This document shows, piece by piece, positions 5,619-49,259 of a stretch of 64,000 nt of DNA. The DNA lies in NCBI GenBank assembly GCA_054600435.1, contig BAAIJX010000001.1:620001-684000 (forward strand), read 5' to 3'. This DNA comes from Neophaeotheca triangularis (lineage: Eukaryota). Below the pieces are notes generated by a model. It did not search any database. It had not been told where the DNA came from and saw only the letters and a program-made list of their open reading frames with translations. Position 1 is the stretch's first letter. Each line of letters opens with the position of its first letter. The translations under genes were made by a program, and so were the position numbers.

Positions 5619-6009
5619 ATGGTGTACCCGCAGTACGTCCCGTATATTGCTTCACGATGTCCTAGCACTAACACTGTTTACCAGATACCCGTCGCCCACT
5701 TACCAGCAGCAACAGCCCATGCGCGGCGGTCACCGCGGTGGTGGACGTGGCCAACGAGGTGGCCGCGGGCAACGTGGCAATCACCAACAGCGTGGTGGCT
5801 ACCAGACGCATGGAGGGCCACATACGCGAGGCGGCCACCAGATGCGTGGAGGGCCACAAACTCGAGGCGGCTACCAGATGCGTGGAGGGCCACAAATGCG
5901 AGGCGGCTACCAAATGCAACCGCAGATGCAATATGGTCATACTCCTCAGCAACACAACCGTCCTCAGCAGCAGTATCGAGATGACGATGATTGTTGCGGT
6001 TGCTGCTGA
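5619..6009 (+). CDS. small Gln/RGG-repeat protein ending DDDDCCGCC; exons 5619-5632, 5685-6009
   Basis: ATG at 5619; 52-nt intron gtacgt...cactaac...ccag (5633-5684) joins to give MVYPQYPSPTYQQQQPMRGG...; 18-nt RGG repeats; Cys cluster before TGA. Confidence 0.7.
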
Positions 6010-11389: not shown

Positions 11390-13186
11390 ATGGGTAAAGG
11401 TATGTAAAACCACTCCCCAATGCTCTTTGAACACCGCTAATCGATTGGTTAGGCACCGACAAGTTGTACGTGAGTCTCAACCACCAACTACACACCACAT
11501 CCTCCTCTCTAACGCCGTTTACAGATCACCCACAGCGAGTGGAATTCCGAGGATGCATTCGGAGCCTCAGCCGGAGCGAATGCACGCAAGGCGGCCAACG
11601 GGAGCGTGAGCGCGAGCTTCAAGAGACTGCCCTTCAACTTTTGCGCCCTCTCACTTCTCCCGTTCGAACACCCCGTATGTACTGCCGAGGGAACCGTTTT
11701 CGACCTCACCAACATCCTACCATGGCTGAAGAAGCACGGCACAAATCCGGTGGATGGCAAACCTCTGAAGCGATCCGATTTGATCAAGCTTAACTTTGGA
11801 AAGAATGATGCTGGCGAATACGTCGATCCTGTGACATATAAGGTGCTCACGGATAATACCCATGTGGTCGCGCTGAAAACTACTGGAAATGTGTACTCTT
11901 GGGATACCGTAGAGAGGCTGAATATCAAGGCGAAGAACTGGCACGATCTTCAGGATGAGTCGGAATTTTCGCGAAAGGACATTATTACGATCCAGGACCC
12001 GCAGAACATAGAGTCGCGAGATCTGAGCAAGTTCAAATACCTTCAGGATGGCGAGGATACTCTCACAGAGGAGCAAAAGGCCGAGAGGTCAGCCGGTGTC
12101 AAGACAGATGCATTAGGCTCAGCAGGCAAGATCCTCAAAGCCAAAGAAGCTGTCGCAAAAGCCCGGGCAGAGCGCGAGAAAAAGGATGTTTCCTCAGCAG
12201 AAGCGCAAGCTCTCTCCAAATCCCGCGGTGCTCACGCCTCAGTCTCACAAACCGCCCGGTCCGCCAAACCAACCCCCTACAATGCAGCCCAATATACCAA
12301 CGGGCAAGCCGCCGCCTCCTTCACCTCCACTGGCCTCACCCCCAACACCTCCAACGAACGCCACATCTACAGCGACGAAGAATACATGCTGCAACCCAAG
12401 CGCGTCAAGCTGACCGGCTACGCCCGCATGGAAACCAACCACGGCTCCCTCAATCTAGAACTCTACCCCGAACACGCGCCCAAAGCCGTCTGGAACTTCA
12501 TCCAACTCGCCAAGCAAGGCAAATACCGCGACATCTCCTTCCACCGCAACATCAAGAACTTCATGATCCAGGGGGGCGACCCGAGCGGTACCGGGAGAGG
12601 CGGGCAAAGCTGCTGGGGCAAACCATTCGCTGACGAATTCGACGGCCCGCTCGCCCACGACACCCGCGGTGTCTTGAGCATGGCAAACAAGGGCAAAGAC
12701 ACAAACACTTCACAATTCTTCATCACTTACCGGCCTGTGCCGCACTTGAACAACAAGCACACGATCTTCGGCCGGGTGGTCGAGGGCGAAAACACGACGC
12801 TACGCAAACTGGAGTCCGTGGACGTGGACGAAGGGTCCAAACCCCTCGACCCGTGCGTTTTGCGCGACGTAGTCGTCTACCTAGACCCTTTCGAGGAGTT
12901 CTTGGCGCAGCGCGATAGCAAGGAAGCCGAGGAGGCGAGGAAGCGGCAACAGGAGTTGGAAGGCGGTGCCGAGGACGAGCGGACTACGTGGACGGGTAAG
13001 CGGATTCGCAAGGATGGCAAGGTGGAAGACGAGGGTGGGGAAGGAGGGGTGGGGAGGTATTTGAAAGCCGCGAGCGAGATGATGCCCGGGGAGGAGGAGA
13101 TTGTGGAGGAGGTTGATGAGGGGATGGCGCCGCCGCCCGCGAAGAAGAAGAAGGGTGCGGGGTTTGGGAATTTTGACGCGTGGTGA
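11390..13186 (+). CDS. peptidyl-prolyl cis-trans isomerase-like 2 (Cyp60/PPIL2; U-box + cyclophilin); exons 11390-11399, 11453-11469, 11525-13186
   Basis: Spliced start MGKGTDKLYITHSEW; U-box region FKRLPFNFCALSLLPFEHPVCT; cyclophilin FHRNIKNFMIQGGDPSGTGRGG; ends FGNFDAW. Confidence 0.93.
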
Positions 13187-13559: not shown

Positions 13560-13780
13560 ACCCATGTACTACTTATTGTTCTGCTTGCTTACCTACTTAC
13601 TCTTACTTACTCCTCTACTCATTTACTTACTTACTTACTTAGTCACTTACTTAGTCACTTACTCTTACTTACTTACTTACTCTTACCTACTCCTCTACTC
13701 ACTTACTCACTTACTTACATAGTCACTTAGTCACTTACTTACTTACTATTGTTTACTCCTCCACTCACTCACTTACCCTA
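13560..13780. repeat. degenerate (TACT/TTAC)n low-complexity repeat
   Basis: Runs of acttactt, actcactt and agtcacttactt visible. Confidence 0.9.
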
Positions 13781-14000
13781 TGCCCTCAGAAAGGTACACT
13801 CGATCCAAGCCAAAAGGCTGTGATGAAGCCCACCCCTGCCACGACTTATGACCACCCATGTGGCAAGCGCAGTGAGTCCCACGGCTTTTGGCACGGAGCT
13901 ATGGCTGAGTAAGCCGCGCTAAGCGCACAGGCCCACTGCGCAGACACAAAACCGAGCTGCTCTTCCAGTTCTCTCCGTCTCCTTTTCTTCTTCTCCTCTC

Positions 14001-14189
14001 CAGCTCTCTTTGCCTTTTGGCTTAGATCAAGTGTAGTATCTGTTCTTTTCAGTTTAATCTCTGAAACGGTCCTACGGGACCTTCAAGATTATTCTTATTT
14101 TTGTCACCCGACGGTGAGCTCCTGTGCTTGCGCATGCTCACCGTCACCGTGTCGCTGGTATCGCACTACTTCCAGCTGACGCGAACCAC
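14001..14189 (+). ncRNA. U2: U2 spliceosomal snRNA
   Basis: ctctttgccttttggcttagatcaagtgtagtatctgttcttttcagtttaatctctgaaa matches the conserved U2 5' region, including the branch-site recognition sequence GTAGTA and stem IIa; Sm site tatttttg at about 14096-14103; two 3' stem-loops (gacggtgagc...gctcaccgtc and gctgg-tatcgcacta-...ccagc). Ends approximate. Confidence 0.93.
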
Positions 14190-15124
14190 TACCTTTTTTT
14201 TTCATCACGCTCTTGTTGCTTTTGCGCAAGGTCTTGGAGAAGAAACCTGACTTGCGCCGCTGGCCTATGGACATTATACATTGTATGCACTCAGTCTCAA
14301 ACAAATATCGAGCCTGTACGTGTGCGAGGCCATTAAAGTCTCGGCGTTACAGGACCGCGAACGCAGCGGCTGCTTTCTTGCCAACCCAAGCTCCCCCTGG
14401 ACAGGATACCAGCACTTCGCTCTACCACTGAGGCAACACACCTGAGAAGACGACCTTCACGTGAGGCGGAGCGGACCACGGAAGTAGAAAGAAAAGGCAG
14501 CATGAACGACCTGGACATTCTGAAGGACCCAAGCTACCATCTTCACCGCGTTCAGTCTGGTCTTGATTCCCACGTCTCTGGCTAAAGCACAATACCTACG
14601 ATTCCTCGTTGTCTGGATATGCCGTCAAGAAAGCTCCAATTACACCTCGTGAATGACTGCTTCTCTGCATTCGGCTGCCTCGGTAGGCGCAAATGCCACG
14701 CGATGCGCCTCATCTGAAGCTGTTACCGGATTCGGCAATGCCGACGAGGTCTCCCTTTATGCCATGTGGAGATGGGATGGTCGTTCGTAGTTTCTAGAGC
14801 ATCGATTCCATGGCAGGGCAGTCTTCACTGGCTGGATTGGAGTCATGCCGTCACAAGCCTTTGTCGTTCAAGAACAATATCAAGCACAACCACAAAGGCA
14901 ACTTCCCATACCCGGCCCATTACAGCTACTCGACAACAATACTAACGGCAATCGAGCATCTGCAATGGCTACACCAATCTCCAAGAAGCCTTTCTCTCCT
15001 CTGTTCTGCAACCAACCAACAATCTCCAGCGCCAGCTACTTAAGCACAACCAAATCCCAACCGAAGACATTTTCTCCCTCCACCGATATCCAACACTTTA
15101 TCAAACTACACACACTCGTTCAAG

Positions 15125-15195
15125 GTAAGCCTGAACTTCCACCTCCAACACCTCTCCCCCAATCCACCAGCAACTAACACTCCTCCCCCCCGCAG
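15125..15195 (+). other. predicted 5'-UTR intron of the pheromone-like gene
   Basis: gtaagc donor, ctaac branch point, pyrimidine tract and cgcag acceptor 31 nt before the ATG at 15227. Confidence 0.7.
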
Positions 15196-15226
15196 TCACC
15201 GACTTACCCAACCAACCAAAATCAAC

Positions 15227-15391
15227 ATGTACGCCACCACCACCACCACCGACTTCGCCAACGAGAAGCGCAGGGGCGCTCCTCTCTCCGGCTGCGAGCT
15301 CCAGAGGCGCCGCCGCGGTGCCCCCCTGTCCGGCTGCGAGCTCCAGAGACGCCGCCGCGGCGCTCCCCTCTCCGGCTGCGAGCTCATGTAA
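15227..15391 (+). CDS. putative lipopeptide (a-class/hybrid-type) mating pheromone precursor, 54 aa, three GAPLSGCEL(Q/M) repeats
   Basis: MYATTTTTDFANEKRRGAPLSGCELQRRRRGAPLSGCELQRRRRGAPLSGCELM*; terminal CaaX-like CELM; no signal peptide; repeat differences are synonymous; good start context (atcaacATG). Confidence 0.82.
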   Translation: MYATTTTTDFANEKRRGAPLSGCELQRRRRGAPLSGCELQRRRRGAPLSGCELM

Positions 15392-16120
15392 GCTGCCCAC
15401 ACTCCTCCTCTCCACCATTAGACGGAGTTGAGTCGTAGCTTGCGCCACCCAAGAAAACCACCCCCTACTCAAGCACGCCGGCCGGGCGATTCGAAGGTCG
15501 ACAACTACCACTACAAACACCACGGAAAAGGAAAACGACGAAAAAAAAAAAAAAGGGACTTTTTGATTCTTCTCGCGCCATGCACGCAGGACGACGACGC
15601 CCGTGAGACCTGGGTCTCCGGCTGTTTTTTTCTTCGCCCTGCCAGTGCGGTATTCGACCGGATGCTGCGCTTGTTTTTACATACAACCCACCAAAACATT
15701 TACTCGGTCTTGGAGTTGCGGTTTTGTTTTTGCGGCAAGGGATTGCGTCTTGGATGGGCTTGTCACCGGGCTTAGATAGGAGCTTTTTTCTTGAGAATGC
15801 AGAACTTATTGCGCTCCAAAGTCTGATCCACCTTTTCTTTCTCTTTCTGCTTAGTTTGCAAGTCATTTTGTATTGCTGTGGTTCACTCTACTGACCTTGT
15901 CTCCGTCTTGCGCAGTGCGACCGCGCAGTTATTCCCGATGCTGCGAATTTCGAGGTGAGGTCTTGAAAGAACAAAGCCAATGTGATGGAAAGCTAGGTAT
16001 TGTTCTCGCAGAGCACAAAGCGGAAATGCGCCCAGCTTCACCCAACGTATGTCAGAGAGGACTATCGAGGTATAACCCCTACACGCACAGGGAACGCCGC
16101 ACGCATCTGAATACCTCCAA

Positions 16121-18979
16121 TCAAAAAATACCCCAACCCTTCTTCCGCTTCCCTTCACTCTCCGTCTGCGAACCCCTCGAGCCCCTCCTCTTTTCCACCC
16201 TCTCCAGTTCCCTCAACCCCTCCATTTCCTTCAGAACGTGCTCCAGCAAATCCTTCCTCCTAACCACATCCAAATGCCTTCGAATCTTCGGATCCTCCCG
16301 CGCGAATCTCTCAAGCGTAGATTCATCCAACTGCTTGAATTGTTGCTCCAGCACCCGCGGGAATTGATAGTAGAATTTACTCAAAAGCTCAGCATCGAGG
16401 AACAGGTCCGCCGTAGACGTGAGCTTGTCGGCGACGGCATCGAGGAAGATTTCCGGACAGTAGTATTTATTCTTCGGGTTTGAGCATTGCCGGCTCTTGA
16501 CAGCCGCGAGCCGCATGCGGAGAATGTCCGAGCGGTCGCGCAGGAACAGCGCTTCCCGGCCTTTTTGCAAGAGTGCGGCGCTGAAACCTCCCGCCCCGCC
16601 TACGCCGTCGCCTTCGAGGACGACTTCGCCTTTGCGGACGCGGTCAATGAAGGCAACGACGTCTTTTGCTTTACGCCGCCCGCCGAGTGATTCTTCGATG
16701 CCCTTGGTGGCGTTCTCGCAGTCGCGGAGTTCGTGCTTGAGAACCTCAGTGATGTTATCTCTACCGCGGCGCCATTCGGCGTCGTCGAGCTCGATGCGAT
16801 ATTTGTAGGGTTTGACGCAGATCTCGAGCTCGTCGCTTGTATCGTAGGAAAGATCGCGGAGGATGTTCTCCGAGGCTTGCGTGATTGCTTGTACAGCGAA
16901 AGGATGGGCGGCAAAGGGGCTGCTTTTAATGAGGGTTTGGATCGAGTTTTGTAGGCTTTGGGCTGTAATTGTTGTGGCCAAGCGTCCAATACCTAGCTTG
17001 GTGAGAGTCGAAGTAGAGGCATCTAGCTTCAAGTGCCAGAGCGGGTTCTCAGGGTCGGCTTTTGGCAGCGACTCGAGTGGTTCTTGCACTGGTTCTGAAT
17101 GGGGGTTCAAGGGGCGCAGGGTCTCGACTGGGCGGTTCCAATATCGCTGAGCCAAAAGGTTGAGCACTTGCTGGTCAAGCTCACTCTTGACAATCTCCCT
17201 GACTTCCTTTCGGCCAAATGTGTCTGCAAGGCCCTTGAAAGAGTGCTTGAAAGTATCTAGGGACTCGGCAAGATGTGACTCCGCGCTGAGTGGACGCTCG
17301 TTGTATTGTACCTTGAACTCATAACTAGCTTCGGCGAGCTCGTGGTGGATAGCTTCGCTCGTGCTGGCAAGCGACGCACTCATGGTCGATTCAAGCACAT
17401 GCATCAGCTTCTTCCTCAAATTTGGTGTACCAGTCAATACCGAAGACGCCTCGCCGAAAGCTTCAGGGTGCGCATTGAAGTACGCCGACTCATTCCGCGT
17501 AATGGCGTTTGTGATGTTAGCTGAGCCCCGCGAGAAGAGCGACTTGGATTCTTGGGGAATCTTGCAGACGACACCGACATAACCCAGCCTCAGAGGATAG
17601 TTCTTGTCTGTCAAGATTTGCGTGCCTCGAGCCGGATCAACAAGGTCCATCTTCGTGACCACACCAATGGTCCGCTCGCCCCGTGGATCTACTCTTCGCG
17701 AGGCTCGGAGCGCAGTTGAATTGGCGAGATCGACGTCGGCTGCCGAGATGGCAAGGATCACGTTCGGTGGCTGAATGTACTTGTCGCATAGCTCTTGAAT
17801 TTTCGTCTTGAGCTCTGTTGGCTGGTCAAAAGCCTCGACCTGGATGTAACCTGGCAAGTCAATCAAGCTCAGATCCGGGACGTTGGGGGAGTGGATGCGC
17901 AACTGAATCGGATCGTCTGAGACACAGTCTGTTTCCGGCACGGCGAGGTTGAGATCAGTCAACGTCTTTTGAATCTGGCTGAAATCTGTGATCCTTCCGA
18001 GCCCTAAAGCCGGGAATTCGCCGTACTCTGCATGAGCTTTTGGTGTGTTGACAAGCGTCAGCTCTATTGGTCGTCTCGTGACCATGTTGGAGCCCTTTGG
18101 CAGAAACTCATGCCCAACAATAGCTTCCAGCACTGAGCTCTTCCCCGATGACTGCGATCCAACCACTACTATCGACGGCAGCGTGAGCGATTCGGACTGT
18201 CCGATCGTCTGAAGCAGCGACCGTATCTCAATCATCTTGCGAGTCAACATCATCATCTGGTCATCCCTTGCGGCCTTGTCGTCTGGACGAGTATCCTCCT
18301 CGCCATCAGCATCATAACCAAAAGCGGCCGCAGTCGCAGCACCAGCTCCAACAGCTCCAACGTTACTTTCACGAGGTTGATTCGGTCCACCGCCCCCTCC
18401 ACCACCTTCTCCTTCCTCCCTGCCTGCTCTTCCTTCGTATATATCCCTCATCCACTGCGGAAGCTTCGGGCCCTCACCCACATCATCCTTAGTCTTGTCC
18501 CAGCCCCTCCCCATCCGCTCATACACATCTGCCGCGCCCTCGAGGAACCCCTTGCCGGCAGCGCTAGCAGCATCTTTGGCAGTACTGAAAACACCAATCG
18601 CATAATTCCCCGCCTGAGCAGCCTGGTACTGCAAGTAGGCCAGACCACCAATCATGGCCGCCCCAAACATAGCCGGCAACCGCACCAGCTTCAAAGCAAG
18701 CTTGGGCAGAGCACGCGCAAATGAGGCATGTCGGACGGCGGGCAAGTTGTGGATAGCGTTGCGGCCATACGGCCATCGAGGTTGGGAAGCCCATCTTGAG
18801 CCCGTCGGAAGCAGGCCGCCCGTTCGAGAGAGCAAAAGGGCATTCGCAGGTCGGCGGGCAGCTACGGTGCTGCCGTGGCGTGTTGAGGCTACATTCTGTC
18901 CGGCGAGCGCGGGCCGACGTCCTAGGAGGCCTGCTTTCGCGGAGGAGACGAAGCGCGAGGACAGCAGCCTCGAAAGCAT
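16121..18979 (-). CDS. MGM1: mitochondrial dynamin-like GTPase Mgm1/Msp1 (OPA1 family)
   Basis: Presequence MLSRLLSSRF; TM segment; dynamin G motifs VVVGSQSSGKSS, VTRRP, DLPG, TKMD; intronless ORF. Confidence 0.95.
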   Translation of the reverse strand: MLSRLLSSRFVSSAKAGLLGRRPALAGQNVASTRHGSTVAARRPANALLLSRTGGLLPTGSRWASQPRWPYGRNAIHNLPAVRHASFARALPKLALKLVRLPAMFGAAMIGGLAYLQYQAAQAGNYAIGVFSTAKDAASAAGKGFLEGAADVYERMGRGWDKTKDDVGEGPKLPQWMRDIYEGRAGREEGEGGGGGGGPNQPRESNVGAVGAGAATAAAFGYDADGEEDTRPDDKAARDDQMMMLTRKMIEIRSLLQTIGQSESLTLPSIVVVGSQSSGKSSVLEAIVGHEFLPKGSNMVTRRPIELTLVNTPKAHAEYGEFPALGLGRITDFSQIQKTLTDLNLAVPETDCVSDDPIQLRIHSPNVPDLSLIDLPGYIQVEAFDQPTELKTKIQELCDKYIQPPNVILAISAADVDLANSTALRASRRVDPRGERTIGVVTKMDLVDPARGTQILTDKNYPLRLGYVGVVCKIPQESKSLFSRGSANITNAITRNESAYFNAHPEAFGEASSVLTGTPNLRKKLMHVLESTMSASLASTSEAIHHELAEASYEFKVQYNERPLSAESHLAESLDTFKHSFKGLADTFGRKEVREIVKSELDQQVLNLLAQRYWNRPVETLRPLNPHSEPVQEPLESLPKADPENPLWHLKLDASTSTLTKLGIGRLATTITAQSLQNSIQTLIKSSPFAAHPFAVQAITQASENILRDLSYDTSDELEICVKPYKYRIELDDAEWRRGRDNITEVLKHELRDCENATKGIEESLGGRRKAKDVVAFIDRVRKGEVVLEGDGVGGAGGFSAALLQKGREALFLRDRSDILRMRLAAVKSRQCSNPKNKYYCPEIFLDAVADKLTSTADLFLDAELLSKFYYQFPRVLEQQFKQLDESTLERFAREDPKIRRHLDVVRRKDLLEHVLKEMEGLRELERVEKRRGSRGSQTESEGKRKKGWGIF

Positions 18980-19524
18980 TCTCACCTGCTCATCGGCGAG
19001 CACGATCTGGCGTTTCTAGTAAGATAGCCAGTGAAAGGTAAGTGTTGGTCCGTTTCGGTATTCCTGAGGTTACATGTTTGTTTCGAAACCTTGACGTCGA
19101 GCACTGGAGGTCGTCACTGTGCTGACTAAGCATATCATGTCACGTGCATCTATCTAGCGCCGCTCAAATGCGAGGTAAGACTAGACTTCTGTAGACCATG
19201 GGAGTTGCAGTAGTCTGGGATGCAATATCAAGCGACGGAGAGTTAAGAAAACGCGAGTTCGTCGGCCGTAAAAGCGGTGCACATTTAGCCGAGGAAGAAG
19301 CCCCCCAGGCAAATGCGCATTGATTTGGGTATACAGGTAGACCTCGCTTGCTCGCTGATCCACGCCATCCTCTCCCGATAGCAGCAGGGAGAGCAACAGG
19401 GCACTCCAAACCAAGCCAAGAAGCCTCACACACAACCATCCAAGCCAAGCAACTTTCTTGCACAGTCACGACCACTCGTCGTGAACCCGCGCCAACTCGC
19501 AACTAGGCCCCCTCAAGCTCCCGC

Positions 19525-21660
19525 TCACAACACACCACCAGGGACCTAGCACGCACAGACGTCAGCGCCCAATCCATCAGAGCCCCGTCATGAAGAACGA
19601 AGCACACTCACCTTCCCATCAGCTCTCCCACCCTCACCACTACCGCCGCTTCCCCCTCCACCTCCGCCGCCTCCACCACCACTTCCAGTACTCCCACTCC
19701 ACCCTTCCTGCGGACTAGCATGCCTCCTGAGCATAAACATAGGTTTCCTGCCTTCCTTGTCGAGTTGCTTGAAAAGCAGCAGAGGTTTCTCCTCGAGCCC
19801 AAGACAGCGCTCCTGGTCGCCGTGGACGATGTAAAGAGCGTATTGGCGCCAGTCGTCGGTGATATTGTAGCGTTTGAGGGCCTGTTGTAGGAGGGAAGGC
19901 GGGTGTGTTAGTGAGGATGTTCTTTGAGGGTATTTCGGTGCAGGAGTAGGGGGTGAGGTGGTGAGTTCTTCGTGGAAGTGGACGCGTTTGGGGGTTGGGG
20001 TGGAGGGGAGGGGTTGGAATGGGCTTGTCAAGCAGGTGTGCTGGGGTTTTGGAGTCTGAGGGAGGGGTGAGGCGAAATAGTTGGCTCGTACCACTGGTAA
20101 GACGACGCGGCAAGGGTCGTCGATGGAGACTCGGAAAGATTTGAAGATTTCGACTTGAGGGTTGTCGCGGTCGCCTCTGTTTGGGGTAGCTTTGTTAGCC
20201 CGATGCTTTCTGTCTTTGTATGTTTCGTATACTTCTGCAACGGATGGTGAGATGATGAGAGGGTAATCGTGGACGTGCCTTTCGCGCTCCCCGCGATCTC
20301 TGTCCCGTTCGCGCACGCTACCGCCGCTACCCGGAGTCTCGTCTTCTCTCGGACTTGGTGTCGGAGCTTGTCTACGCATACGATCGCGTTCTCTGTTGGT
20401 CAGTGTGCTTGCTCCGCTTTCGGGAACGGCCGTTGTAGAGCTCCAATTGCTAGTCGTAGAGTAGCCGGTACCTGTCTCTTCGTTGGCGTGCGAAGCGTAT
20501 GCTCGTGGGTCGTGTCTCGCGGACGCTGCTGTGCCATCTCGGGGAAATGATCGAGCGGCCGCCGACCCGGGCTGATGCTGGTAAGAACCGCCTGACGATG
20601 GAGCGTGAGTGCTATACGCCGGGCTTGTCGGACTCATCTGCGAACCAGGGTAGCCGTTTGGGCTTGTCTGGCTTGCCATGCTCGCTGTCAGATGACTGCT
20701 AGCCGCCATCGCCGCAGCTGAAGCCTCCAAATGCCCGCCACCATCATCCCGCACCTCTCGAGGCTGAGGAGTATGCGATTGAGGTGGATGTGTCGGTGAC
20801 GGCTGTTTCGGCGCAGATCCGAGAAAAAGTTTCTTGGTTGAAAACTTGCGGCTCAGCGAGCTACCTTTGCTCTCCTTCACAGGCAAAGGGTTCTCGTTTT
20901 GCTTTGACGAGTCGAATTCACGGGGCGAGGGGATGGTGCCACCAGAAGGATCCGGAAGAGGTGTTCTTTGGTCCTTTACGAGCCTCATGATTGGAAGCGT
21001 CTCTTCTCTCAGCTTCCGATTCTCATCAACCACTCGATCCAGATCTTGCCGCAACGTCCGGAGCTCCTTCTCAGTCGCAATTATGCGCTCGTCTCGCAGA
21101 CGTATGCTCTCAATAACACGCGCAATATCATCTTGAGTAGCTGACATGTCCCCTTTCTCTCCCTCCGCGGATAGCGGCACGTAGTCTCCGTCCTTGATCT
21201 TGACGCCTGACAGTATCTTCTGCTCGTATACAGCCCTTAGAATAGTCAGGCGATGTCCAACACTGACGATGCCCAACTCGCGAAGCTCGTCATGACCCAA
21301 ATCAACGAGGACAGAGCCATCAATCCCCTCTTCCTGCATGGCTGGCGCATATTGCCTTAATGCAGGTGACAACGAAGCAACATACTCTGCCGCCTGCTCC
21401 AAATTCCACTGTAAAATGCTTCCTGTTGGGCTCCTGCCTTCCCTGTCTGTCCAAGCCTGCGTAGTCGGAGTGTCTTCGCCATTGAGAGAGCGACGCTCTT
21501 CATCCGATTCCGAAGGGTGATCCGAAGAGCCGTCGTCATCATCATCAGCAAAGTGTGCAGGCAGCGTGGGCGAAGTGAAGACAGAGCGCTCAAACTCATC
21601 GTCCGCCTCCGCATCACTGTCGTACATGCTATCGCCCGCTTGCCTCGCATATTTGTCCAT
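19525..21660 (-). CDS. STE50: Ste50 MAPK adaptor (SAM + Ras-association domains); exons 21660-20279, 20176-20092, 19881-19612, 19545-19525
   Basis: SAM (LRELGIVSVGHRLTILRAVY), coiled coil, RA domain (EIFKSFRVSIDDPC...ALKRYNITDDWRQYALYIVHGDQERCLG...KPMFMLR); spliced C-terminus VPGGVL. Confidence 0.9.
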
Positions 21661-22846
21661 GTTGTCCGGCTCAAGCCTCTTGGCCGTCTCTGGCTGCGTA
21701 GCCGTGCCGCTCCTGCTCCTCTGAGTTTTCAAACCAGTTCTATCGCTCAAATACCTCTCTTGCGCCGTTCGTGCAGTGTGTGGAGCTAGAGCGGCGGGCT
21801 CCGCTCGCTCCCCGAAACTGGCGTCAATGGGTGTAGCAGCGAACTCGGTTTCTGCGGGACTTGCAGGGCTCGAAGGACTGGCAGGATAGCTCGAAGTCTT
21901 TTGAAGACCCGGCAGGCGATCATGCGAGGCGCCGAAGCTGCCACCAGCACCGCCAGCCCTCAGCGGCAAGATGCCGGACGCGCTCCCGGCAGAGCCTGCG
22001 GTGTTATTGCTGCTATTCCCTCGGCCCGGAATGTGGCTCGCTCTATGACTGACGCGCGATAGCCAGGAGCCTTTGGAGGAAGAAGCGGCCTGCGAGCCGT
22101 AGGCTTGGTCGTAGGTCGGTTGAGCCAGTGTGACGACGGGTCACGAGTCGGGTGCTCTTTGTGAGCAACCCGACTACAGTAGAATTGGAGGATCAGATGT
22201 GAGGTGGCTCGGGTGGGCGCCGTTTGGTATACTTGTTACACGGCGTGGCTAGGTGCCTGGAGCTGTTTCACAATGACAGGGCGGATGTAAGTTTGTAGCC
22301 GGCTATGGCTGCTGTTATTGTGACCTCACTGGCGCGATGATGTCGGCGACGAGCACGTTCTTACGAATTGGCGGAATGCGTACGGCGTCGATCCAAGGCG
22401 GGAGTTTGGATTAAATTGATCGATAGAGTTGGTAGACAGACAGACCCTTGACAGGTGAGGCGGTGGCAGTTGTTAACGGCCGGCCAGGTGCTTAAGGTTG
22501 TGCAAGCGAGCAGGGCAACCCGGGGACTTCACTCTCTATCCGCCGCGCTTAGACAGGCGGCTAATTCCTGCCAGCATCACCCCGGTCACTAGAACCTTGG
22601 AACCTTATCGTTCTAACGTCCCGCTACCTGTTTAAACTTCACTTGAACCACTTCCAGCAACGTGCTAGTCCTTGAGCTATGGTGCAGCTAAATACATGTG
22701 CATTGGCTGAGGCTTCTCCACAACACCTCAAACGATTACCACCGACCGTCAGCGTGGATCACTACTCTCTCAAAAGCCGCGGTAAGACATCGTGATCCAT
22801 CCGCATTTTCTGAAATGCTGGTAGTTCGACAAGCCCCATCTTCACT

Positions 22847-25800
22847 CTAGCTCAAAAGCTCGCGGATATCCTCAATGCGTTGCATCTTCTTTTCCTCGTC
22901 ACTCATCATGCCCAATGAGCTCGCACTGTAGCAATCTCGTTAGCCAATCGTCCCTCGTCCGGTGCGCAAAACATTCAATACTCACATAAATTTCTTCCGA
23001 TCCTGAATCCGGAGCATCTTTTCCTCAATACTCCCCTCGACAACAAACCTCGTGACTTTGACCTCTTGCGTTTGTCCCATACGATGCACGCGGTCAATAG
23101 CCTGCGCCTCAACAGCCCAGCTCCACCAGGGATCCATCATCCACACCCTGCTCGCACAAGTGAGATTGAGCCCCACGCCTCCGGCCCGCAGACTCAGCAG
23201 CAGCACGCAGAATCTAGGCTCTTCGGCGAAAATCTTGAGGATTTGCGCTCGCTGCTTTTGCGACATGGTGCCGTCGAAGCGGAGGTAGCGGATGCGAGCC
23301 GTGTCGAGGGAGGGCGAGAGGAGGTCGAGGAAGGATGTGAATTGGCTGAAGATGACGGATTTCATGTTGGGGTGCGTTTTACGGAGGGCTTTCAATTGGC
23401 GTAGCAGGGTGGTGATTTTGGCGGAAGAGAGGGCATTGTGACGGCGGAGTGAGACGCGTACGGTGGAAGTTGAGGGTTCTGTGGACTTGGAGGGCTGCTG
23501 CGTGCTGCCATACAAGTCTTCTTCCCCTTCTTCCTCGTTCACAGCGTCTAGTAGAGGGTCGCCTAGGGAGTCATCATGTTCTTCATGACGAATGACTTCG
23601 AACACGTCCCGCGCGTTGATGGGTTCTCGGCAGCTGAAGCAACGCGGCAGCTCGCCTTTGCTTCTTTGGTGCTCAATGTAGTCGAGCAGACATTTTTTGC
23701 ACGCAGAGTGCCAGCAGCCTGTGACGGCCTGCTCTTCCATTGGCTCCTCGCTACAGATCGGACACTCCATGTCCGCGTCCGCTTGAATCTGTTTAAGGAC
23801 GTGAGCGCCGTACTTAGAGGCGTCTTGCTCTCCCTCATCAGCTTCGAAACGTTCGACCAGAGAACTCAAATCCATGTCGTCCGCGAGCCCGTTGGCGACG
23901 TCCGAAGCCGCTGCTGCATCGTCTTCTTCTGCCAGTATTGTTTTGTTGCGGGTCAAAATCGGATGGCAGCACGATTGTCGCAGCCGCAATATTTGAGCGA
24001 AGATTGCAGCGTAGCTTTTCATGAGCGTGCCTGCTTCCATGTTCGAAGAGAACGTTCGCTTAGTACGGGCGTAAATGTGATGGTACACTTCTGATTCCGG
24101 AGTCGAGAATTTGATGCGCTCTACGTCAATTGTTCGAGGCGGAAGGGGGACCAGGGCTTGGCCATCAGGCGTCTTCATATCCTTGGTCCTGCGAAGTACT
24201 AATGGCTCCAGGACTGTTTGCACCACATCCAGCGCGCGAACGAAATCGCCCTTCTCAAAAGGCGTTGTGATAAACGTCTTCCAGAAGCTGAAATTGGACC
24301 ATGGCTCGACACGTAGAAAGCGCACCAAACTGAAGAGATCTTCCAGCCGGTTCACGATAGGTGTGCCGGTCAAGGTCCATCTGTGCGTAGCAGCTAGCTC
24401 GTAGCATGCCTTTGCGGTTTTGGACTGCCTGTTTTTTATCATGTGGGCTTCGTCAAGGATGATGCGCCAGTAATCAAGACTGAATATTCCGCCGTGATTG
24501 CCTCTGTTGCCGCCTTGTCCGGCAACAGCGTTGTACTCGGACAAGACGGTACCGTAGCTTGTGATGATCAGATTGGGTGCGTTGGCAGCATTCGAGGCGC
24601 AACAAAGGTTTTGCAAATTGGCACCTCTCTCGCTGCCGTAGTATAGAAGAACCTTCAGCGACCCAGACTTGGACGCCTTCTCTGCTTCACTCGCCCATTG
24701 CGCTAGAAGAGACATCGGGGCAACTACGAGTGTTGTAGCGGGTGCTCGCTCGATTTCGCTAGACTTGTTCGGCAAGCGTGGCAGACTATTCACGGTCTCG
24801 CTGCCGTTAACGTCCATGGCGGCTTGCTGCTCTGGCGAAGAATTGGTATGCATGAGCGAAAGCATCTCGATTGTCTTTCCGAGACCCATCTCGTCAGCTA
24901 GAACACCGCCGAGACAGTTTTGCTCTTGCACAGGGAAGTCAAGGCTGAGCTCGCCAGAGTAGGGGTTGACGTAGAAGCAGTCTTGGTCTTGAACCGACGG
25001 TAGATCTTTGTCCTCGACATCCTTCGCTGGCCAGGCGTACTCCTCCCACAAAGGATGCATCGACTGCTCCTTGTTGGCATCTTTCTCCGAATTCTCTTTA
25101 CTCATCATCCAATGTAGAGCTTGCCGTTGATATTTCCGAAGATCCATGGTGAAAGTCGAAGCTGGCTGCGCTTCAGGGGTATTGAAGTCAAATGACTGAG
25201 CTTTCTTGTACAAGCTGTCAAGCTGATCTTGCTCCAGTTCCTCGCCCTCTTCTTCCGCGTCTTCAGAAGGTGGGCTTGAGCCCCTATTGTTTGGCGTGCT
25301 GTCACCTTTGCTCTTCTTTCCACCGTCTTGTGTAGAACCATATTGCTCCGCCACCTCAGCAGCTTGTAGAATGCCTTCTCTCTTGTGCTTTGCTGTAGTC
25401 TCGTTGATCTTGGTCGGATGGAGATTGATCTCAGAGAACAGCTTGACAAGCCCGACCTGTCGAATGCGTAGGTCACGCTCGTCTACCGTCTCCCTTGTCT
25501 CGAAGATACCAGTCTCTCGGTTATTTTCCAACGGCTTAATGTAGTTGCTCGAATCAAAGGCTCCTTTCAGCAGATAGCATCGAAGCTGCAAATACACCGT
25601 ATCGTTCGTTCGGAGCCTCTCTGGTGCAAAAACACAGTGACCCTCGAATTGACAAACCTTCTGATCAATGAGTGTGCTTATCCAGGCAGCATTCTCTTTC
25701 TCTAGCCTGCCGACTTCCTGCCCTTTGCTGTTTGTGAAGCGCACGATAACGTCTTGGGTCCTTCTCATAACCTGCTTCGTCTTGCCGCCCTTGCCTGGCT

Positions 25801-26404
25801 TCTGAGGCGCCTGCTGCTTCACACGCTCGAGATTGATCGTTTCATCCGGGGCCAAGATGTTGGTGCCACTTCTTGTCGTCCATCCCGCAACACCCAAGGC
25901 ACCGATGTAGCGTTGGTTCGGCGTTGAAGACAGAGTGTCTGCTTTCGAAGACGAAGACGCCGCGTCTTTACGAGAGGACGAGCCATTGGTTCTCGCTTGA
26001 CTCGCCGTCCCACTAGACTCTTTCCTAAACGCTAATGGTTTCTGAGTATCTGGTGGAGGCCCTAGTCGTGGTTTCTGCGGCGAGGGAGTCTTCCAGGACC
26101 CATCAAAGTATGCGTTTACGGCGCGCTCGAGGTTGTTGCCACAAGAAGCCTGAAGGGATCTGACAGCTTTTTCCGGCACTTCTGCACCCACAAATCCTTT
26201 AAATGTCGCAACATCGAACGTGTTCTCCTTCTCGTCGCTCGATGGGGCCTCGGTAGGCAGGCTCGAAGACGCAAGAGGTGCTTCGGGGATGGTGTTGATT
26301 TCGTCTGGGAGATTCGGTTCGGCCGTGAGAGAGGCGTCTTCATCGACTGTGTCTTCAACAAAGAAACGGCGTTTCTTGTGAGGCCTCTCGTGGATGTCAG
26401 CCAT
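22847..26404 (-). CDS. RAD5: DNA repair protein Rad5 (HIRAN, SNF2 helicase, RING); exons 26404-22986, 22925-22847
   Basis: HIRAN region, GGVLADEMGLGKT, DEAH, RING CPIC...CWHSAC...CFSC, QAIDRVHRMGQ; last exon ASSLGMMSDEEKKMQRIEDIRELLS. Confidence 0.95.
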
Positions 26405-26878
26405 GCTTTCCAATGGCGAGTGAGTGTGTGAGTGGTTGGAAGGCGTTGTTGTGTGGTCTGATCAGAAGTCGCCGTTGCGGGAGACGCGATGAGACGCGTT
26501 AATTGATTGATACCGAAGTACTGTACCTCCAAGTAGTACCCGACTACCTAAAGTGTTAGCCGCCGTCGGTGACGCCTGCTGTTGCTTTCCCGAGGACAGC
26601 CCGTTGGTAGTCCGTTGGTAGTCCGCATTTGGCTTTTGCCTCTTGTCTGTTCGCATGTGATGAAGAGCTGGCTTAACTAAGTTACTTATTATTTTGTTAT
26701 TATTATACCTCCTAGTACAGGAGCTATCTTGAGCTACCTTTAGCTTCCTCAATCGTCCTCTCTTTCCTGTCAAATTGGTAATCGACTATTGACTCAATCA
26801 ATTGACGAGTACCCATAGTGAGGGGAACGTACAGCAATATTTATTAGTCCCGTCGCAGCCTCTGTCCTCCTCCGGACC

Positions 26879-28060
26879 ATGAACAACGCCCGCCTCCTTT
26901 GCGACCGGACACCGCAGGCACTTCAAAAGCATCCGCGTGTTGCTTCTCGTCTTGTTCATGCCTCGCAGAAACGATTCGCAAGTAACAATGTCAGTCAGCC
27001 CGCAGGCGTCATTAGTTCTGCTGCGGAGATACTGTCTGCGCGAAGATTCTGCCTCGACACTTTGAGGCGTTACGATACGCCTTCGTCTCTACTCTTGCCT
27101 TACATCCCCAACCATGCTCGCGACGCATACATTGCCTTGCGTGCTTTCAACATCGACGTTGCACGCACTGCCGATACCACTTCGACACCCACAATTGGGG
27201 CGATGCGGTTGCAGTTCCAGCGGGATGCAGTGACCAAAGCTTTGGCGGGTTCGCCACCCAAGCAACCCATCTCGATACTCCTTGCCAAAGCAGCGGATGA
27301 CATCGAGGCCGTTTCCGACGGCAAAACGAAGTGGAGCAGAAGCTGGTTCATGCGTCTTGTCGACACTCGCGAAAAGCATTTGTCGAACCCGCCCTACCAG
27401 AATGTCGCCGCTCTGGAGAGTTATGCGGAAAATACCTACAGCACTTTGTTGTATCTCACTTTGCAGGCACTCCCCATGGCCAGCCTAACCGCTGACCACG
27501 TCGCGAGTCACATTGGTAAGGCGACCGGCATCGCGGCCGTGTTGCGCGGCCTTCCGCTCATTGCCTTCCCTGGACCCGCCAACAGCCACAGCAATCAAGG
27601 GCAAATGTCTGGAGACGTTGGGTCAACTCGGCAGGGGGCTGTCTTATTACCCTTGGACGTCATGGCAGAGGCTGGTGTTCGCGAAGAAGACGTACTCCGG
27701 AATGGAGCCGACGCCCATGGATTGCGCGATGCCGTCTTTAATGTGGCCACGCGCGCAAATGACCACTTAATCACAGCCCGCCAAATGCTTACCAACATCA
27801 AAGCCGGTCAAGATGCAGGCCACGAGTTCGAACACCAAGACGAAGAAGAGCACGTGTACTTGCCGTCGGTAAGCAAAGCAGAGACTCAGGCGCAAGAAGT
27901 CGAAAGGGCATTTGGAGCTTTCATGCCAGCTGTTGCCACTCAACTGTGGCTCGACAGACTTCAAAAACAAGATTTTGATGTCTTTTCGCCCAAGCTGAGA
28001 GTCACTGATTGGAAGTTACCATTCAAGGCTTTCCGAGGGTACTATCGCCGCAGTCTTTGA
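26879..28060 (+). CDS. squalene/phytoene synthase-like complex I assembly factor (NDUFAF6-like)
   Basis: Presequence-like N-terminus; ALRAFNIDVA, LESYAENTYSTLLYL, HIGKATGIAAVLRG, DFDVF motifs. Confidence 0.88.
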   Translation: MNNARLLCDRTPQALQKHPRVASRLVHASQKRFASNNVSQPAGVISSAAEILSARRFCLDTLRRYDTPSSLLLPYIPNHARDAYIALRAFNIDVARTADTTSTPTIGAMRLQFQRDAVTKALAGSPPKQPISILLAKAADDIEAVSDGKTKWSRSWFMRLVDTREKHLSNPPYQNVAALESYAENTYSTLLYLTLQALPMASLTADHVASHIGKATGIAAVLRGLPLIAFPGPANSHSNQGQMSGDVGSTRQGAVLLPLDVMAEAGVREEDVLRNGADAHGLRDAVFNVATRANDHLITARQMLTNIKAGQDAGHEFEHQDEEEHVYLPSVSKAETQAQEVERAFGAFMPAVATQLWLDRLQKQDFDVFSPKLRVTDWKLPFKAFRGYYRRSL

Positions 28061-40011: not shown

Positions 40012-43000
40012 TCAGTAATAAGCAGACCACCCAGCAAACAGTGTAGCAAGATTCTTCTCATCCGTCGCCTGCTGAATCAACTCATTTACGGTAGCACTCG
40101 TACTCAGCGTCTTACTCAGCTTCTTCTCCACCACACTCAACGCCCTCTCCGCCTCGCCGGCCTCCTGCTCCGTGCCCCAACTGCCAGCCTTCACAGCCTC
40201 CCCGGGCCTGGGCACGCCCCCGGCGGCATTCGTATCTTCCGCCGCGTCCTGCATCCGCTTCGCTCGCAGCGGCGACATGGACCACTCGTACAGCGGGTCG
40301 TAGCGCAGCACGTTCAGCAGCGTCATGATGGAGTCCTTGTCTTGGCGCAGTGCGTCCATGGTGAACTCGCAGCAGCGGCGGAAAACGCCCTCAGTCTGCG
40401 TGACGCCCATACCATCCACAATGTCTCGCGTCAGGCGGAACGGCACGTTTTCCGGGATGGGGAGGACACGGCCGGCTTCGAAGGCGACGCCCAGGTCGAT
40501 GTGGATGACGTCGCCCTTTTCCTCGTCGAGCAGGATGTTGTGGCAGTGTCGGTCGCCGAGGCCGAGTACGTAGCCGAGGATGGAGATGGCTGCTGTCGTG
40601 CGTGTGTAGGCGGTGCGTTTTTGGAACCACTCGTCTGGGTCGTCAAAGCGCTCGAGGAAGAAGTGCCGCATGACTGGATGCAGGTTGTCGGTGATTTTGC
40701 GGAAGGTTTTGATGCGGGTTTCGATGGAATCTTTCTCGACTTTTCGGATTGAGTTGCGGGCTTCGTCGTTTTTGACGTCCGTCGGATAGTATTTCTTGTG
40801 GGCGGGTGCGAGGTAGTCGTTGATGGGCATCGAGTTGGCCACGAACTCGATGATGCCGGATTGGGTGGAGAGGGGGATGACTTTGTAGGTTCGGATGTGC
40901 AGGTTGCGTTGCTGTGTCGCCTTATGATCCTGTAGCATCTTGCTCACTTCTTCGAAGACTTGCTCCATGATTGCATCCTGGCGGAGGTCGTCGTTCCCGC
41001 TCTTGAAAAGAGCGCGCTGTTGCTTGCCGTCGGAGGAAGTAATTGTGAGAACCATGGGTGTACTGAGACCGTTCATTACTAAGACGTTACTGCTCACGCG
41101 TGTGAACAAGGGGGTATCGCTGTAGTCTCCATTTGGTCGTAGGGCCATGGGGACTGTAGGAGGTGGCAGCTGCATTTGAGGCACTTTCTTTGATATCTCC
41201 AGAGCTGGTGGGACGGTTGCCAATTGGACCTTGTTCCCCTTTCGTTTATCGTCAAGTTCATATTTGGCGAGCTTGTGGTACATGTTGTCGGCGGCGAACC
41301 AGTTCTGCATGAGCTGCTGCTTGCTTTGAATGTTAAACAACTCCGTGCGGATAGTTGCAGCAGCGTTGGCCCGCGAAGTCGCCGTTTCTTCTTTTGCGGG
41401 TGGACGTCTGGTGGCCGCAAACAGATGGTGCAGGCTATGGTAGGGATGCTCTGCCATGATACGAGAAAGGAGGCCCCTGAGCGCCGATTGAAACGTTGAA
41501 GGCTCGTCTTTGAGTCGCGATATTAGTTGGTTCATCAGCAGCACGAACTTCCAGCTTGCGACGAAGGGGAGATACTTCGATACAATGCCGTTTGCTTCAG
41601 ACATGTCGGCATTCTCCAGCCACAAAGCGAAGAAGCGAAGAGCGCAAATATTATGGTCGTCCGAAGCTTGCAGGGCGTGTAGGTAGTTTTGCAAGCTCTG
41701 CTGGGCGAACGCCTTCCTGCTCTTCAGAAGTCGCTGATATTCGGCATCGTCGAGGTTGAACCATTGCCGGGTCTTGCTCGCCTCGCGTTGTAGAGTTTGC
41801 TTCTCGTGACTTCTCTTTGCCCCTTTTTCTAGCTCCTCGATGTCCATTAACTCTGCTTTTTTCTGCTCGCGTAGCCTCGCAATCCGCCTGAAGTCTTCAA
41901 GGTTTCCAGGGTTCTGCAGTTGCTGATCACAGAAGTTGGCGAATTCGAAGAAAACTTCGCCAGCTTCTTGGCCTTCCCTTCTGTTCCCCAAGTGCTCGAT
42001 TGCGCGCTTCAAAATGTCGTTCATGATGATCTCCGGTTTCTCTAAGCGTGCGTTTGCGAGTTGATGACCCACCTGAGCCATGATGCCAGACCTCCCGACT
42101 GGTACTGTCTGCTTCTCGATATCTTTCATGGCTAGAACCTCTCTCAACAGGCTCACAGAAGCGGCAGCCTCACCATGACCCCACAGAACTTTGGCAACCT
42201 CGGACTTTGCTGCGGCTTCTACTTGCATGCCCATTTGGTTGCAATCGAGCGCCAGGTCGCTGACGTGTGTTGCCGCAGAAAGTGCATCTTGCAGTCGACC
42301 ACTCTTTCTTGCCAACTCTGATACGCTCAGAAGAGCCTTCACCTGCAGGACACGACAGGTCTTCGGGCTCAAGTGTAGGGCGTCAAGAATGCTGCGGTTC
42401 TGGCCAAGCGCTCCGAACAGAGCCGGCCTGTTTGTTGCGAGCTCCTCAAAGTCTTCAAATTTAGATAGCTGCATCCAACTTTGCCTCAAGGCCATTTTTG
42501 CCCAGAGCGACCGGGATTGATCCTCTCCAGGAAGACGCAAAACTTCGGTCATTTCGGTAAGAGAAGCAAGCGTGGAGAAAAAAGCTGAAGACAGTGTGCG
42601 ACCCTGCTGATCAGTCATTTGGCCAAGCAGCGGTTGAATTAGGTCGTTCTCAACCGTAGCTTGTAGCGGCGACAACTGCGATGCACGGCTGATCTCTTGT
42701 AGTGCGCGAAAAGAAGCGATCATGGTATCTTCTGCTTCAGTATCTACGACAGTAACGTCCCATTGCTGCAACTTTTTCGCTGCACTAAGCATCTGCCCAG
42801 AAGACGCTGGTTGTCCGAGCTTGCCAGACAGGATAGCGAAGGTCACACTACTGAGGCCCAAGGTCGCCAATGAGTGAGTCATGCCGGCTCCGTCCACCGT
42901 ACTTGATGAATGTGTCGACTGCATGCGGCTGTCCATTTGTGCGGATCGAAACATAAGACTTTTCAAGCCATCGCCTTCGTAGTCCAATCGCTCTAACACA

Positions 43001-48822: not shown

Positions 48823-49259
48823 GGTGAAGTCGATTCTCAGAAACGACAAAGCATGCTGGCCTGAGGTGTTTTCTTCGTCCAATATGGAACACAACGCCTG
48901 CAAAGTGCACACGCGGTGCGAAGCGTCATGAGAGTCTTAAGTCAGAGCGCCTCTTGGTATGCACTTCTCATTGCAGAACGAATGAATGGTGTTGAGCCTG
49001 AGGCTCAAAGCATAGGAGATGTCGGGTCAGAGGTGTATTTAAGCTTCGATACAGAAGGCCCGAGCTTTCTCTCACGGAAGCGCGTTATTACGGCGCGTGT
49101 TTCTTTGCCCGAGCTGTCTCGAATCTTTCACAACTTCACTTGCGACTGACCGCCTAGTGTTCTCTTTGAGTGAGTGACACAAGTTATCGCCACGCCCGCC
49201 AAACCGAGCTTCATTCTCCCTGCTGAGTACATTAGCTTGCAACCGGAAAAACCGCCGCC

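Follow-up and report, generated by a model that had tools for sequence, protein, structure and literature searches.

A candidate multi-copy a-factor-class pheromone precursor in a short three-unit reading frame of the Dothideomycete Neophaeotheca triangularis

Before a putative single-unit Leotiomycete gene was put forward as the first exception, an a-factor gene was known among filamentous ascomycetes from Sordariomycetes only, according to Wilson et al. 2023 (PMC10569646). Several of the described Sordariomycete precursors are of a multi-repeat (hybrid-type, h-type) kind. HPP1 of Trichoderma reesei is described as carrying three (L/I)GC(T/S)VM copies and two Kex2 sites without a signal peptide (PMC3068285), and it is required for male fertility and has relatives in Fusarium (Schmoll et al. 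2010, PMC3068285). The Verticillium Ppg2-like precursor is reported with five repeats and internal CaaX-like motifs (PMC8295516), while the precursors of Huntiella and other Ceratocystidaceae contain as many as five repeats that each carry a CpaX of their own, the further processing of which is stated as unknown in the accounts cited (PMC10182648, PMC13037118). A Thr/Ser-rich N-terminus is given as common in a-factor precursors (PMC10569646). For the Dothideomycetes, one Ste6-like gene per genome is reported in all members analysed (PMC6071951), and our literature search, which left most subscription journals outside, found no paper describing an a-factor gene in this class. Here we analyse a stretch of 64,000 nucleotides of the black-yeast-type fungus Neophaeotheca triangularis (assembly GCA_054600435.1, contig BAAIJX010000001.1, positions 620,001 to 684,000, forward strand; hereafter the window, with all coordinates counted from its first letter), which holds an unannotated 54-residue open reading frame (ORF) composed of a short leader and three Cys-containing units. 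By a narrow balance of the evidence, we favor that this gene encodes a signal-less cytosolic precursor of a farnesylated, carboxymethylated multi-copy (h-type) a-factor-class pheromone.

The ORF is located at 15227-15391 on the forward strand, and its translation is the one given in the original prediction, which had proposed a precursor combining repeats with a CaaX end as in HPP1. This architecture is real, and multi-repeat a-factor-like precursors represent a published kind. By inspection, the leader is polar and Thr-rich with a run of five Thr and lacks a hydrophobic stretch, and no signal peptide is visible, congruent with what had been claimed. Part of the leader, DFANEK, is similar to the leaders of two proteins described below, P0003 and P0008. 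The parts of the gene are as follows, with the basis of each assignment in brackets.

15227..15391, forward strand: candidate precursor coding sequence, 54 codons from ATG to TAA, stop included (translation, codon log-odds)
15227..15274, forward strand: leader MYATTTTTDFANEKRR (translation, alignments with the repeats removed, 16 of 16 codons ending in G or C)
15275..15304, forward strand: unit 1, GAPLSGCELQ, with the internal CaaX-like box CELQ (unit comparison)
15305..15316, forward strand: spacer RRRR, encoded AGG CGC CGC CGC (unit comparison)
15317..15346, forward strand: unit 2, GAPLSGCELQ (unit comparison)
15347..15358, forward strand: spacer RRRR, encoded AGA CGC CGC CGC (unit comparison)
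15359..15391, forward strand: unit 3, GAPLSGCELM, with the candidate terminal CaaX box CELM and TAA immediately after (translation, unit comparison)
15125..15195, forward strand: putative 71-nucleotide intron in the 5' untranslated region, GTAAGC ... ACTAAC ... CAG, canonical in appearance (by eye, sequence only)

Tandem Repeats Finder places a 42-nucleotide period, repeated 2.6 times, at 15275-15385; the matches amount to 88% and there are zero indels. Fourteen of the 42 columns vary among the units, six of them within the 33 columns where every unit encodes RRGAPLSGCEL; each of these six changes is synonymous (GGC/GGT, GCT/GCC, CCT/CCC, CTC/CTG, and AGG versus CGC). The remaining eight variable columns belong to the first spacer (E-K for R-R, as well as a synonymous AGG/AGA) and to the final change of CAG to ATG, replacing Q with M. 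A single random substitution on the RRGAPLSGCEL segment is synonymous in 29 of 99 cases, and six random substitutions preserved the peptide in 0.03% of 200,000 trials (about 3e-4). The selection on this frame that had been claimed is supported by the six of six synonymous differences in the shared part, and the GC content at third codon positions adds a coding signature, being 0.91 in the ORF and 0.59-0.74 in the six neighbouring genes. The signature extends to the non-repeated leader, where every one of the 16 codons ends in G or C while the flanking intergenic DNA has a GC content of 0.51. Moreover, the codon log-odds reach +10.8 in the frame of the ORF, the remaining sense frames scoring -10.6 and -12.8, and the start context CAACATG places an A at -3 of the ATG at 15227. 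The synonymous pattern alone does not fix the strand, because the wobble-sharing antisense frame is also open, with one E/D change. Aggregated, these data indicate that the 54-residue ORF is probably a real gene.

To place the product among known proteins, it was used as query in an exhaustive phmmer search of 1.84 billion representative proteins. This search returned 48 matches at E<=1e-3, mostly long low-complexity proteins, eight of which are at most 201 amino acids (aa) long. Two share the build of the query including a similar leader. The first, P0003 (KAK3048800.1, LTR09_009912), comes from Extremus antarcticus, where it is a hypothetical protein of 61 aa (phmmer E 3.1e-9; BLASTP E 1e-11 for the whole proteins), in which a leader ending YNDEK is followed by L-GSAPLAGCTLQ, K-L-GSAPLAGCVVQ and K-L-GSAPLAGCVLQ, and then by K-V-K-V-V-DRPIAGCEVM directly before the stop. 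The second, P0008, measures 79 aa and holds four G-R-x-I-D-G-C-T-[LV]-S units, reading from an internal Met MEFALSKKV-GRPIDGCTLS-RRRV-GRPIDGCTLS-RKDK-GRHIDGCTLS-KDK-GRDIDGCTVS-YM. When only the leader and the first unit were aligned, the 54-aa product scored 49 against P0003 and 60 against P0008, levels reached by 0 of 20,000 shuffles in each case, and these repeat-removed alignments extend into the leader ([DE]FA..K / NDEK). The ORF, its selection signature, its architecture and the existence of these similarly built relatives are what is directly observed. Other searches were less productive: a word-indexed protein search with the 54-aa product gave zero matches at E<=10, and the Protein Atlas, queried with this product and with P0003, offered best scores of 0.76-0.77 to bacterial clusters, which are uninformative. 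Neither the exact 54-aa product nor the product of a 105-aa antisense ORF is present in a collection of 15 billion proteins, and the peptide string of the 54-aa product had no match in the literature searched. Among sequencing runs, words of the window occur in two DNA runs carrying the same organism label (shares of 1.00 and 0.52) and, at a small share of 0.07, in two others, with no RNA run among those listed.

Comparison of the three proteins sheds light on how such a precursor may be processed. The CxxX is directly followed by K or R in eight of the eight internal units, with Q or S at position X, and these two are among the X residues classically preferred by farnesyltransferase. The terminal X is Met in both the 54-aa ORF and P0003. 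In three units of the Extremus protein the seven residues up to and including the Cys are identical and the next two vary (TL, VV, VL), which fits the pattern expected if the aaX were removed and the peptide preceding the Cys were the active part. Similarly, the K or R directly after the internal CxxX fits a cleavage that would expose new CaaX ends. Conservation does not extend to dibasic Kex2-type sites, the Extremus spacer being Q-K-L with a single K; consequently a Golgi Kex2-type route, which the lack of a signal peptide already made unlikely, is no trait of the family. The original prediction had invoked a cytosolic protease rather than Golgi Kex2, a proposal that the single-K spacers of Extremus, free of dibasic sites, reinforce. 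It had also regarded the tetra-Arg spacers as unusual, a view in need of correction: they are particular to this species and do not characterize the family. The relatives point to cleavage at the junction of X with a basic residue, and not to dibasic sites, and in the simplest reading a cytosolic cut at this junction would turn each internal CxxX into a C-terminal CaaX box. The CTVS-YM end of P0008 would point to cutting between X and the basic residue too, unless it reflects an error or a decayed copy. That the junction protease would be of the M16 type (Axl1/Ste23) is a guess by analogy with the a-factor pathway of yeast.

The terminal CELM-TAA forms a CxxX box with Leu at a2 and Met at X. 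In the table of 8000 CXXX sequences of PMC9231725 (supplement file 7), CELM, CELQ and CEVM are predicted as prenylated by the support vector machine and frequency models, and as cleaved by both cleavage models, whereas FlexPepBind rejects CELM and CEVM and PrePS rejects CELM; CTLQ and CTLS, as found in the relatives, belong to the positive training sets (Berger et al. 2022, PMC9231725). In an in vivo yeast Ydj1 screen, enrichment was 2.25 for CELM, 2.59 for CELQ and 1.67 for CEVM (Kim et al. 2023, PMC10320760, File S2), compared with 1.608 for the naturally farnesylated CASQ, and a1 is tolerant of many residue types (PMC10320760). The acidic a1 had been regarded as unusual, which also needs correcting, as it recurs in the CEVM of Extremus and is rated farnesylatable in the yeast data sets. 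By analogy with these data, farnesylation of CELM and CELQ is plausible.

Every biochemical step of the maturation is inferred here, as are the role in mating and whether cleavage or prenylation would come first. The 54-aa product would remain in the cytosol, where farnesyltransferase would act on the Cys of the terminal CELM, a CaaX protease of the Rce1 or Ste24 type would take off ELM, and a Ste14-type methyltransferase would esterify the new C-terminus. An endoprotease would then cut the junction between X and the basic spacer (between Q and R here, between Q and K and between S and R or K in the relatives), freeing the lipopeptide and leaving a CELQ C-terminus that is itself a CaaX box, so that units 2 and 1 could mature likewise. 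The product would be up to three copies of approximately GAPLSGC(farnesyl)-OMe, possibly with leftover N-terminal Arg, which would be exported by a Ste6-type ABC exporter and act on a Ste3-type receptor. For the farnesylated methyl ester of GAPLSGC the predicted [M+H]+ is 822.479, rising to 978.581, 1134.682 or 1446.884 when one, two or four N-terminal Arg are retained. As a more tentative extension, to which we give distinctly less than even weight, the 54-aa ORF, LTR09_009912 of Extremus and P0008 may define a Dothideomycete a-factor family, at least of the Mycosphaerellales, with iterative cytosolic maturation by a protease cutting between X and basic residues, and with P0008 devoid of an encoded terminal CaaX.

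The surroundings of the gene were assessed as well. The cyclophilin, U2 small nuclear RNA (snRNA) and mgm1 neighbours named in the original prediction are all correct, and a fourth gene adjoins mgm1.

11513..13186: cyclophilin with a RING/U-box-like domain
14000..14190, forward strand: U2 snRNA gene, full length, 1 kb upstream of the ORF (RF00004, 159.3 bits)
16121..19015, reverse strand: Mgm1/Msp1 dynamin-like GTPase, convergent with the ORF (protein family search)
19588..22140, reverse strand: protein with SAM and Ras-association domains, adjoining mgm1, about 4 kb from the candidate pheromone gene

The pair of SAM and Ras-association domains at 19588-22140 is that of Ste50, the adaptor of the fungal pheromone-response MAP kinase pathway; with a neighbourhood that is not conserved in relatives, however, the proximity of this Ste50-like gene to the candidate is probably a coincidence. 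The best named relatives of Mgm1 are from Dothideomycetes, of the Mycosphaerellales and allies, including Extremus antarcticus (81% identity over 89% of the query), Baudoinia panamericana (80%), Acrodontium crateriforme (79%) and Zasmidium cellare (78%), and also Hortaea, Teratosphaeria, Friedmanniomyces and others. Judged by this similarity the host is a Dothideomycete of the Mycosphaerellales and not a Sordariomycete. Synteny was addressed using 80 metagenome loci fetched with the C-terminal 480 aa of Mgm1 (52-86% identity), 56 of which have at least 1 kb downstream and 49 at least 2.5 kb upstream. U2, cyclophilin, the Ste50-like gene, Rad5 and biotin synthase were found beside mgm1 at 0 of the 80 loci, even at E 1e-3, and gene order around mgm1 seems to turn over fast in these fungi. 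None of the 80 loci offered a credible match to the 54-aa product, P0003 or P0008 (best E 0.36) or a repeat-CaaX ORF, and as none keeps the neighbours of the window, this synteny result says nothing about the gene. The window ORFs of at least 220 aa revealed neither a mating-type (MAT) gene nor a pheromone receptor nor a cyanase.

The specificity of the pattern was evaluated in the window and the same 80 loci. ORFs of 15-100 aa that start with M and end in CxxX number 33 in the window, of which only the 54-aa ORF has repeated units, and short ORFs ending in CxxX number 331 when the 80 loci are included; since they are this common, a terminal CaaX alone is worth little. Four residues ending in Cys are repeated in only 2 of the 331, namely the 54-aa ORF and a low-complexity (TGCTAT)n stretch, and reading the combined 787,420 bases in six frames yields the motif P-[LIVM]-x-G-C-x-[LIVM]-[QMSAC] just three times, each time in the 54-aa ORF. 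Tandem repeats are represented in the window by 17 rows, corresponding to about 13 arrays, as overlapping rows count the same array.

A number of other features were observed in the window. In the rest of the window Pfam identifies housekeeping genes of an ordinary kind, namely a Rad5-type SNF2/HIRAN/RING helicase at 22982-26461 (reverse strand), a squalene/phytoene synthase at 26822-28060 (forward), a Tel1/ATM-type kinase with TAN, PI3/4-kinase and FATC domains at 40012-48936 (reverse) and Nup192 at 49236-54269 (forward). A CTTA-rich microsatellite at 13584-13747, also called as an 80-nucleotide repeat of two copies, is situated between the cyclophilin and U2. Further upstream, a 36-nucleotide tandem repeat at 5782-5917 (forward, 3.8 copies) is contained in a small Arg/Gly/Gln-rich ORF at 5719-6009 (forward), which encodes 96 aa ending DDDDCCGCC directly before the stop and which a short intron would probably join to an ATG at 5619. 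The repeat was considered as an alpha-factor-like precursor and rejected, the ORF being RGG/Q-rich with neither a signal peptide nor a Kex2-flanked repeat; its C-terminus, rich in Cys, may serve for lipidation or as a membrane module.

The ORF could also be no gene at all, only an intergenic 42-nucleotide minisatellite that is by chance open in one frame and happens to end in CxxX. The abundance of tandem arrays and of short CxxX-ending ORFs described above would agree with such an origin, as would the lack of the exact protein in the 15-billion-protein collection and of a relative beside mgm1 at the 80 loci. Yet chance does not account readily for unit differences that are exclusively synonymous (about 3e-4), for a leader in which all codons end in G or C within a region of 51% GC behind an A at -3, or for finding, in a different genus of this order, a 61-aa protein whose build and leader are similar, and we regard the minisatellite explanation as quite unlikely. 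It is very improbable that the selected frame is a different one, either the wobble-sharing antisense frame (72 aa from stop to stop) or the +1 frame of a spliced protein starting from an ATG at 14845 or 14965. That antisense frame is open, with units that differ by the one E/D change, and the intron at 15125-15195, as judged by eye, would plausibly link an upstream ORF to the +1 frame. The +1 units are however dissimilar (GALLSP / VPPCP / ALPSP), the log-odds are negative for +1, +2 and the wobble-sharing antisense frame (-5.3 for the last), and Pfam finds nothing in the upstream ORF, while the stop directly after CELM and the relatives in the sense frame would be left unexplained. The codon-aligned antisense frame lies within a 191-aa open stretch at 15101-15676, and there too the units are dissimilar.

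Granted a real gene, the product may be an a-factor-class precursor of which only the C-terminal unit matures, the internal units being a degraded N-terminal extension as in single-unit precursors. Only the last unit has a CaaX at the encoded C-terminus, Met occupies X in the last unit alone, both here and in Extremus, and a cytosolic enzyme able to expose internal CaaX boxes is not known. A mere extension would nevertheless hardly be expected to keep internal units identical as peptides in spite of their synonymous changes, nor to place a Q or S accepted by farnesyltransferase directly before a basic residue in every one of the eight internal units of three proteins, and P0008 is without a terminal CaaX; maturation of the last unit only, the closest alternative, therefore appears rather unlikely. 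Also unlikely is that the small gene is real with a product unrelated to mating, such as another prenylated signalling or membrane peptide, or the precursor of a different modified peptide. Many relatives are rock or surface fungi of which only the asexual state is known, and the neighbours of the ORF are housekeeping genes, both of which would suit such a product. On the other hand, the ORF lacks a signal peptide and the adjoining tailoring enzymes found beside fungal Kex2-processed precursors of peptide natural products, and its size, leader composition, repeats and CxxM fit the a-pheromone gene criteria as laid out in PMC13037118, except for the hydrophobic N-terminus.

Several observations weigh against the ORF being a multi-copy a-factor-class precursor. 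If the transcript begins further 5', the ATG at 14965 would constitute an upstream ORF. P0008 ends GCTVSYM, which is not a CaaX box, so that a terminal CaaX is no defining trait of the family unless the last unit of P0008 likewise has to be trimmed. Only two relatives of similar build were recovered among the billions of proteins searched, and a search of annotated proteins with a profile of the three recovered its own members and nothing further, an outcome that is expected for ORFs this small, yet the family stays at three. Furthermore, a predicted 134-aa protein of a fish, Boreogadus saida (P0006), obtained a phmmer E of 4e-8 with GGPVSGCEVL units, comprising four GGPVSGCEVLNADA units and DRPVSGCEVQ with the same 14-residue period as the 54-aa ORF. 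We rejected it as a family member, as its repeat-removed match covers only the 9-residue core, its length is 134 aa and a terminal CaaX is lacking; it probably represents a minisatellite read by chance. As P0006 demonstrates, database E-values for repeat peptides are inflated, and the case for P0003 and P0008 therefore stands on what they share in leader, size and layout, to which taxonomy is added for P0003. The CELM box of the 54-aa ORF is not a strict CaaX/CpaX, Glu at a1 being neither aliphatic nor polar-uncharged, and E at a1 in combination with a2 is one of two negative a1 patterns in Ras-based yeast data (PMC10320760). Since high Ydj1 enrichment is typical of prenylated, uncleaved sequences, with canonical CVIA at 0.406 (PMC10320760), efficient removal of the aaX from CELM and CELQ is uncertain. 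Finally, the gene does not sit in the cyanase-EBP2 neighbourhood, which PMC3068285 describes for a-factor genes of Sordariomycetes, although this location is reported there to vary even within Sordariomycetes, and the upstream kilobase is not enriched in HMG-box-like WWCAAWG (1 site; 82 in the window against 58.8 expected) and has 0 Ste12-type TGAAACA sites (6 in the window against 8.3 expected).

The candidate 54-aa precursor would add to the known multi-repeat (h-type) kind, in a class without a described a-factor. Dothideomycetes include major pathogens of crops and trees and many fungi without a known sexual stage. Should the family represent the missing ligand of the Ste3-type receptor, it would supply a definite sequence pattern by which other genomes could be screened for the gene and would make cryptic sexuality testable with synthetic lipopeptides. 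It would likewise offer, beside the Sordariomycete examples, a second independent lineage in which to study the exposure of internal CaaX boxes in multi-copy precursors.

Among known proteins, the closest in sequence is P0003 of Extremus, from the same order, which shares the leader end DEK, the core APL[A/S]GC in three units, Gln as the internal X followed by a basic residue, and a terminal CE[V/L]M directly before the stop. It differs by having four units, with a divergent last one (DRPIAGCEVM), where three are present here, by spacers of K-L or K-V-K-V-V instead of RRRR, and by T or V instead of E at the internal a1. Among the described pheromone precursors, HPP1 resembles the ORF in being a small cytosolic precursor without a signal peptide (48 aa versus 54 aa), and in having three short Cys motifs with Gly before the Cys, separated by basic sites, the last at the C-terminus as a CaaX box. 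At the level of the motif, as printed in PMC3068285, (L/I)GC(T/S)VM contrasts with SGCEL(Q/M), a1 being polar-uncharged in the former and acidic here, and the internal X being Met and Gln, respectively. HPP1 furthermore belongs to the Sordariomycetes (Hypocreales), is found at another locus and has genetic proof through male fertility, while the 54-aa ORF is known from sequence alone. The precursors of Huntiella and other Ceratocystidaceae and the Ppg2-like ones of Verticillium, as presented in the sources cited above, are also short, with up to five mature repeats that each have a CaaX or CpaX, an aaX more variable than the preceding peptide and a proposed Ste6-type export. All are from Sordariomycetes, however, with other repeat sequences (the Huntiella peptides being Arg-initial and Pro-final), and the Verticillium processing model uses Lys and Asn sites.

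The single-unit precursors, represented by the Saccharomyces cerevisiae a-factor, Sordariomycete mfa-1/ppg2 and the putative Leotiomycete BCIN_13g03330 family, are described as sharing a length below 100 aa, the lack of a signal peptide, a Ser/Thr-rich N-terminus, a C-terminal CxxM and non-classical export (PMC10569646). They differ in yielding one mature peptide each, in their CVIM/CVVM/CTVM boxes with GY before the Cys and, for the Sordariomycete gene, in the cyanase-EBP2 neighbourhood. With its 54 aa, the product falls within the size range of the a-factor class as set out in PMC10569646 and PMC13037118 (below 100 aa), and its N-terminus agrees with the Ser/Thr-rich description (PMC10569646) and not with the hydrophobic one (PMC13037118). 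The alpha-factor class of Kex2-processed repeats is a poor match, with no signal peptide, Arg runs here and single-Lys spacers in Extremus. The three GAPLSGCEL(Q/M) units, the last at the extreme C-terminus, correspond to the published h-type in architecture only, as SGCEL(Q/M) shares with the consensus (L/I)GC(T/S)VM merely G-C and a hydrophobic a2. The 54-aa precursor would thus function in the h-type manner, but by sequence it does not belong to that family of the Hypocreales.

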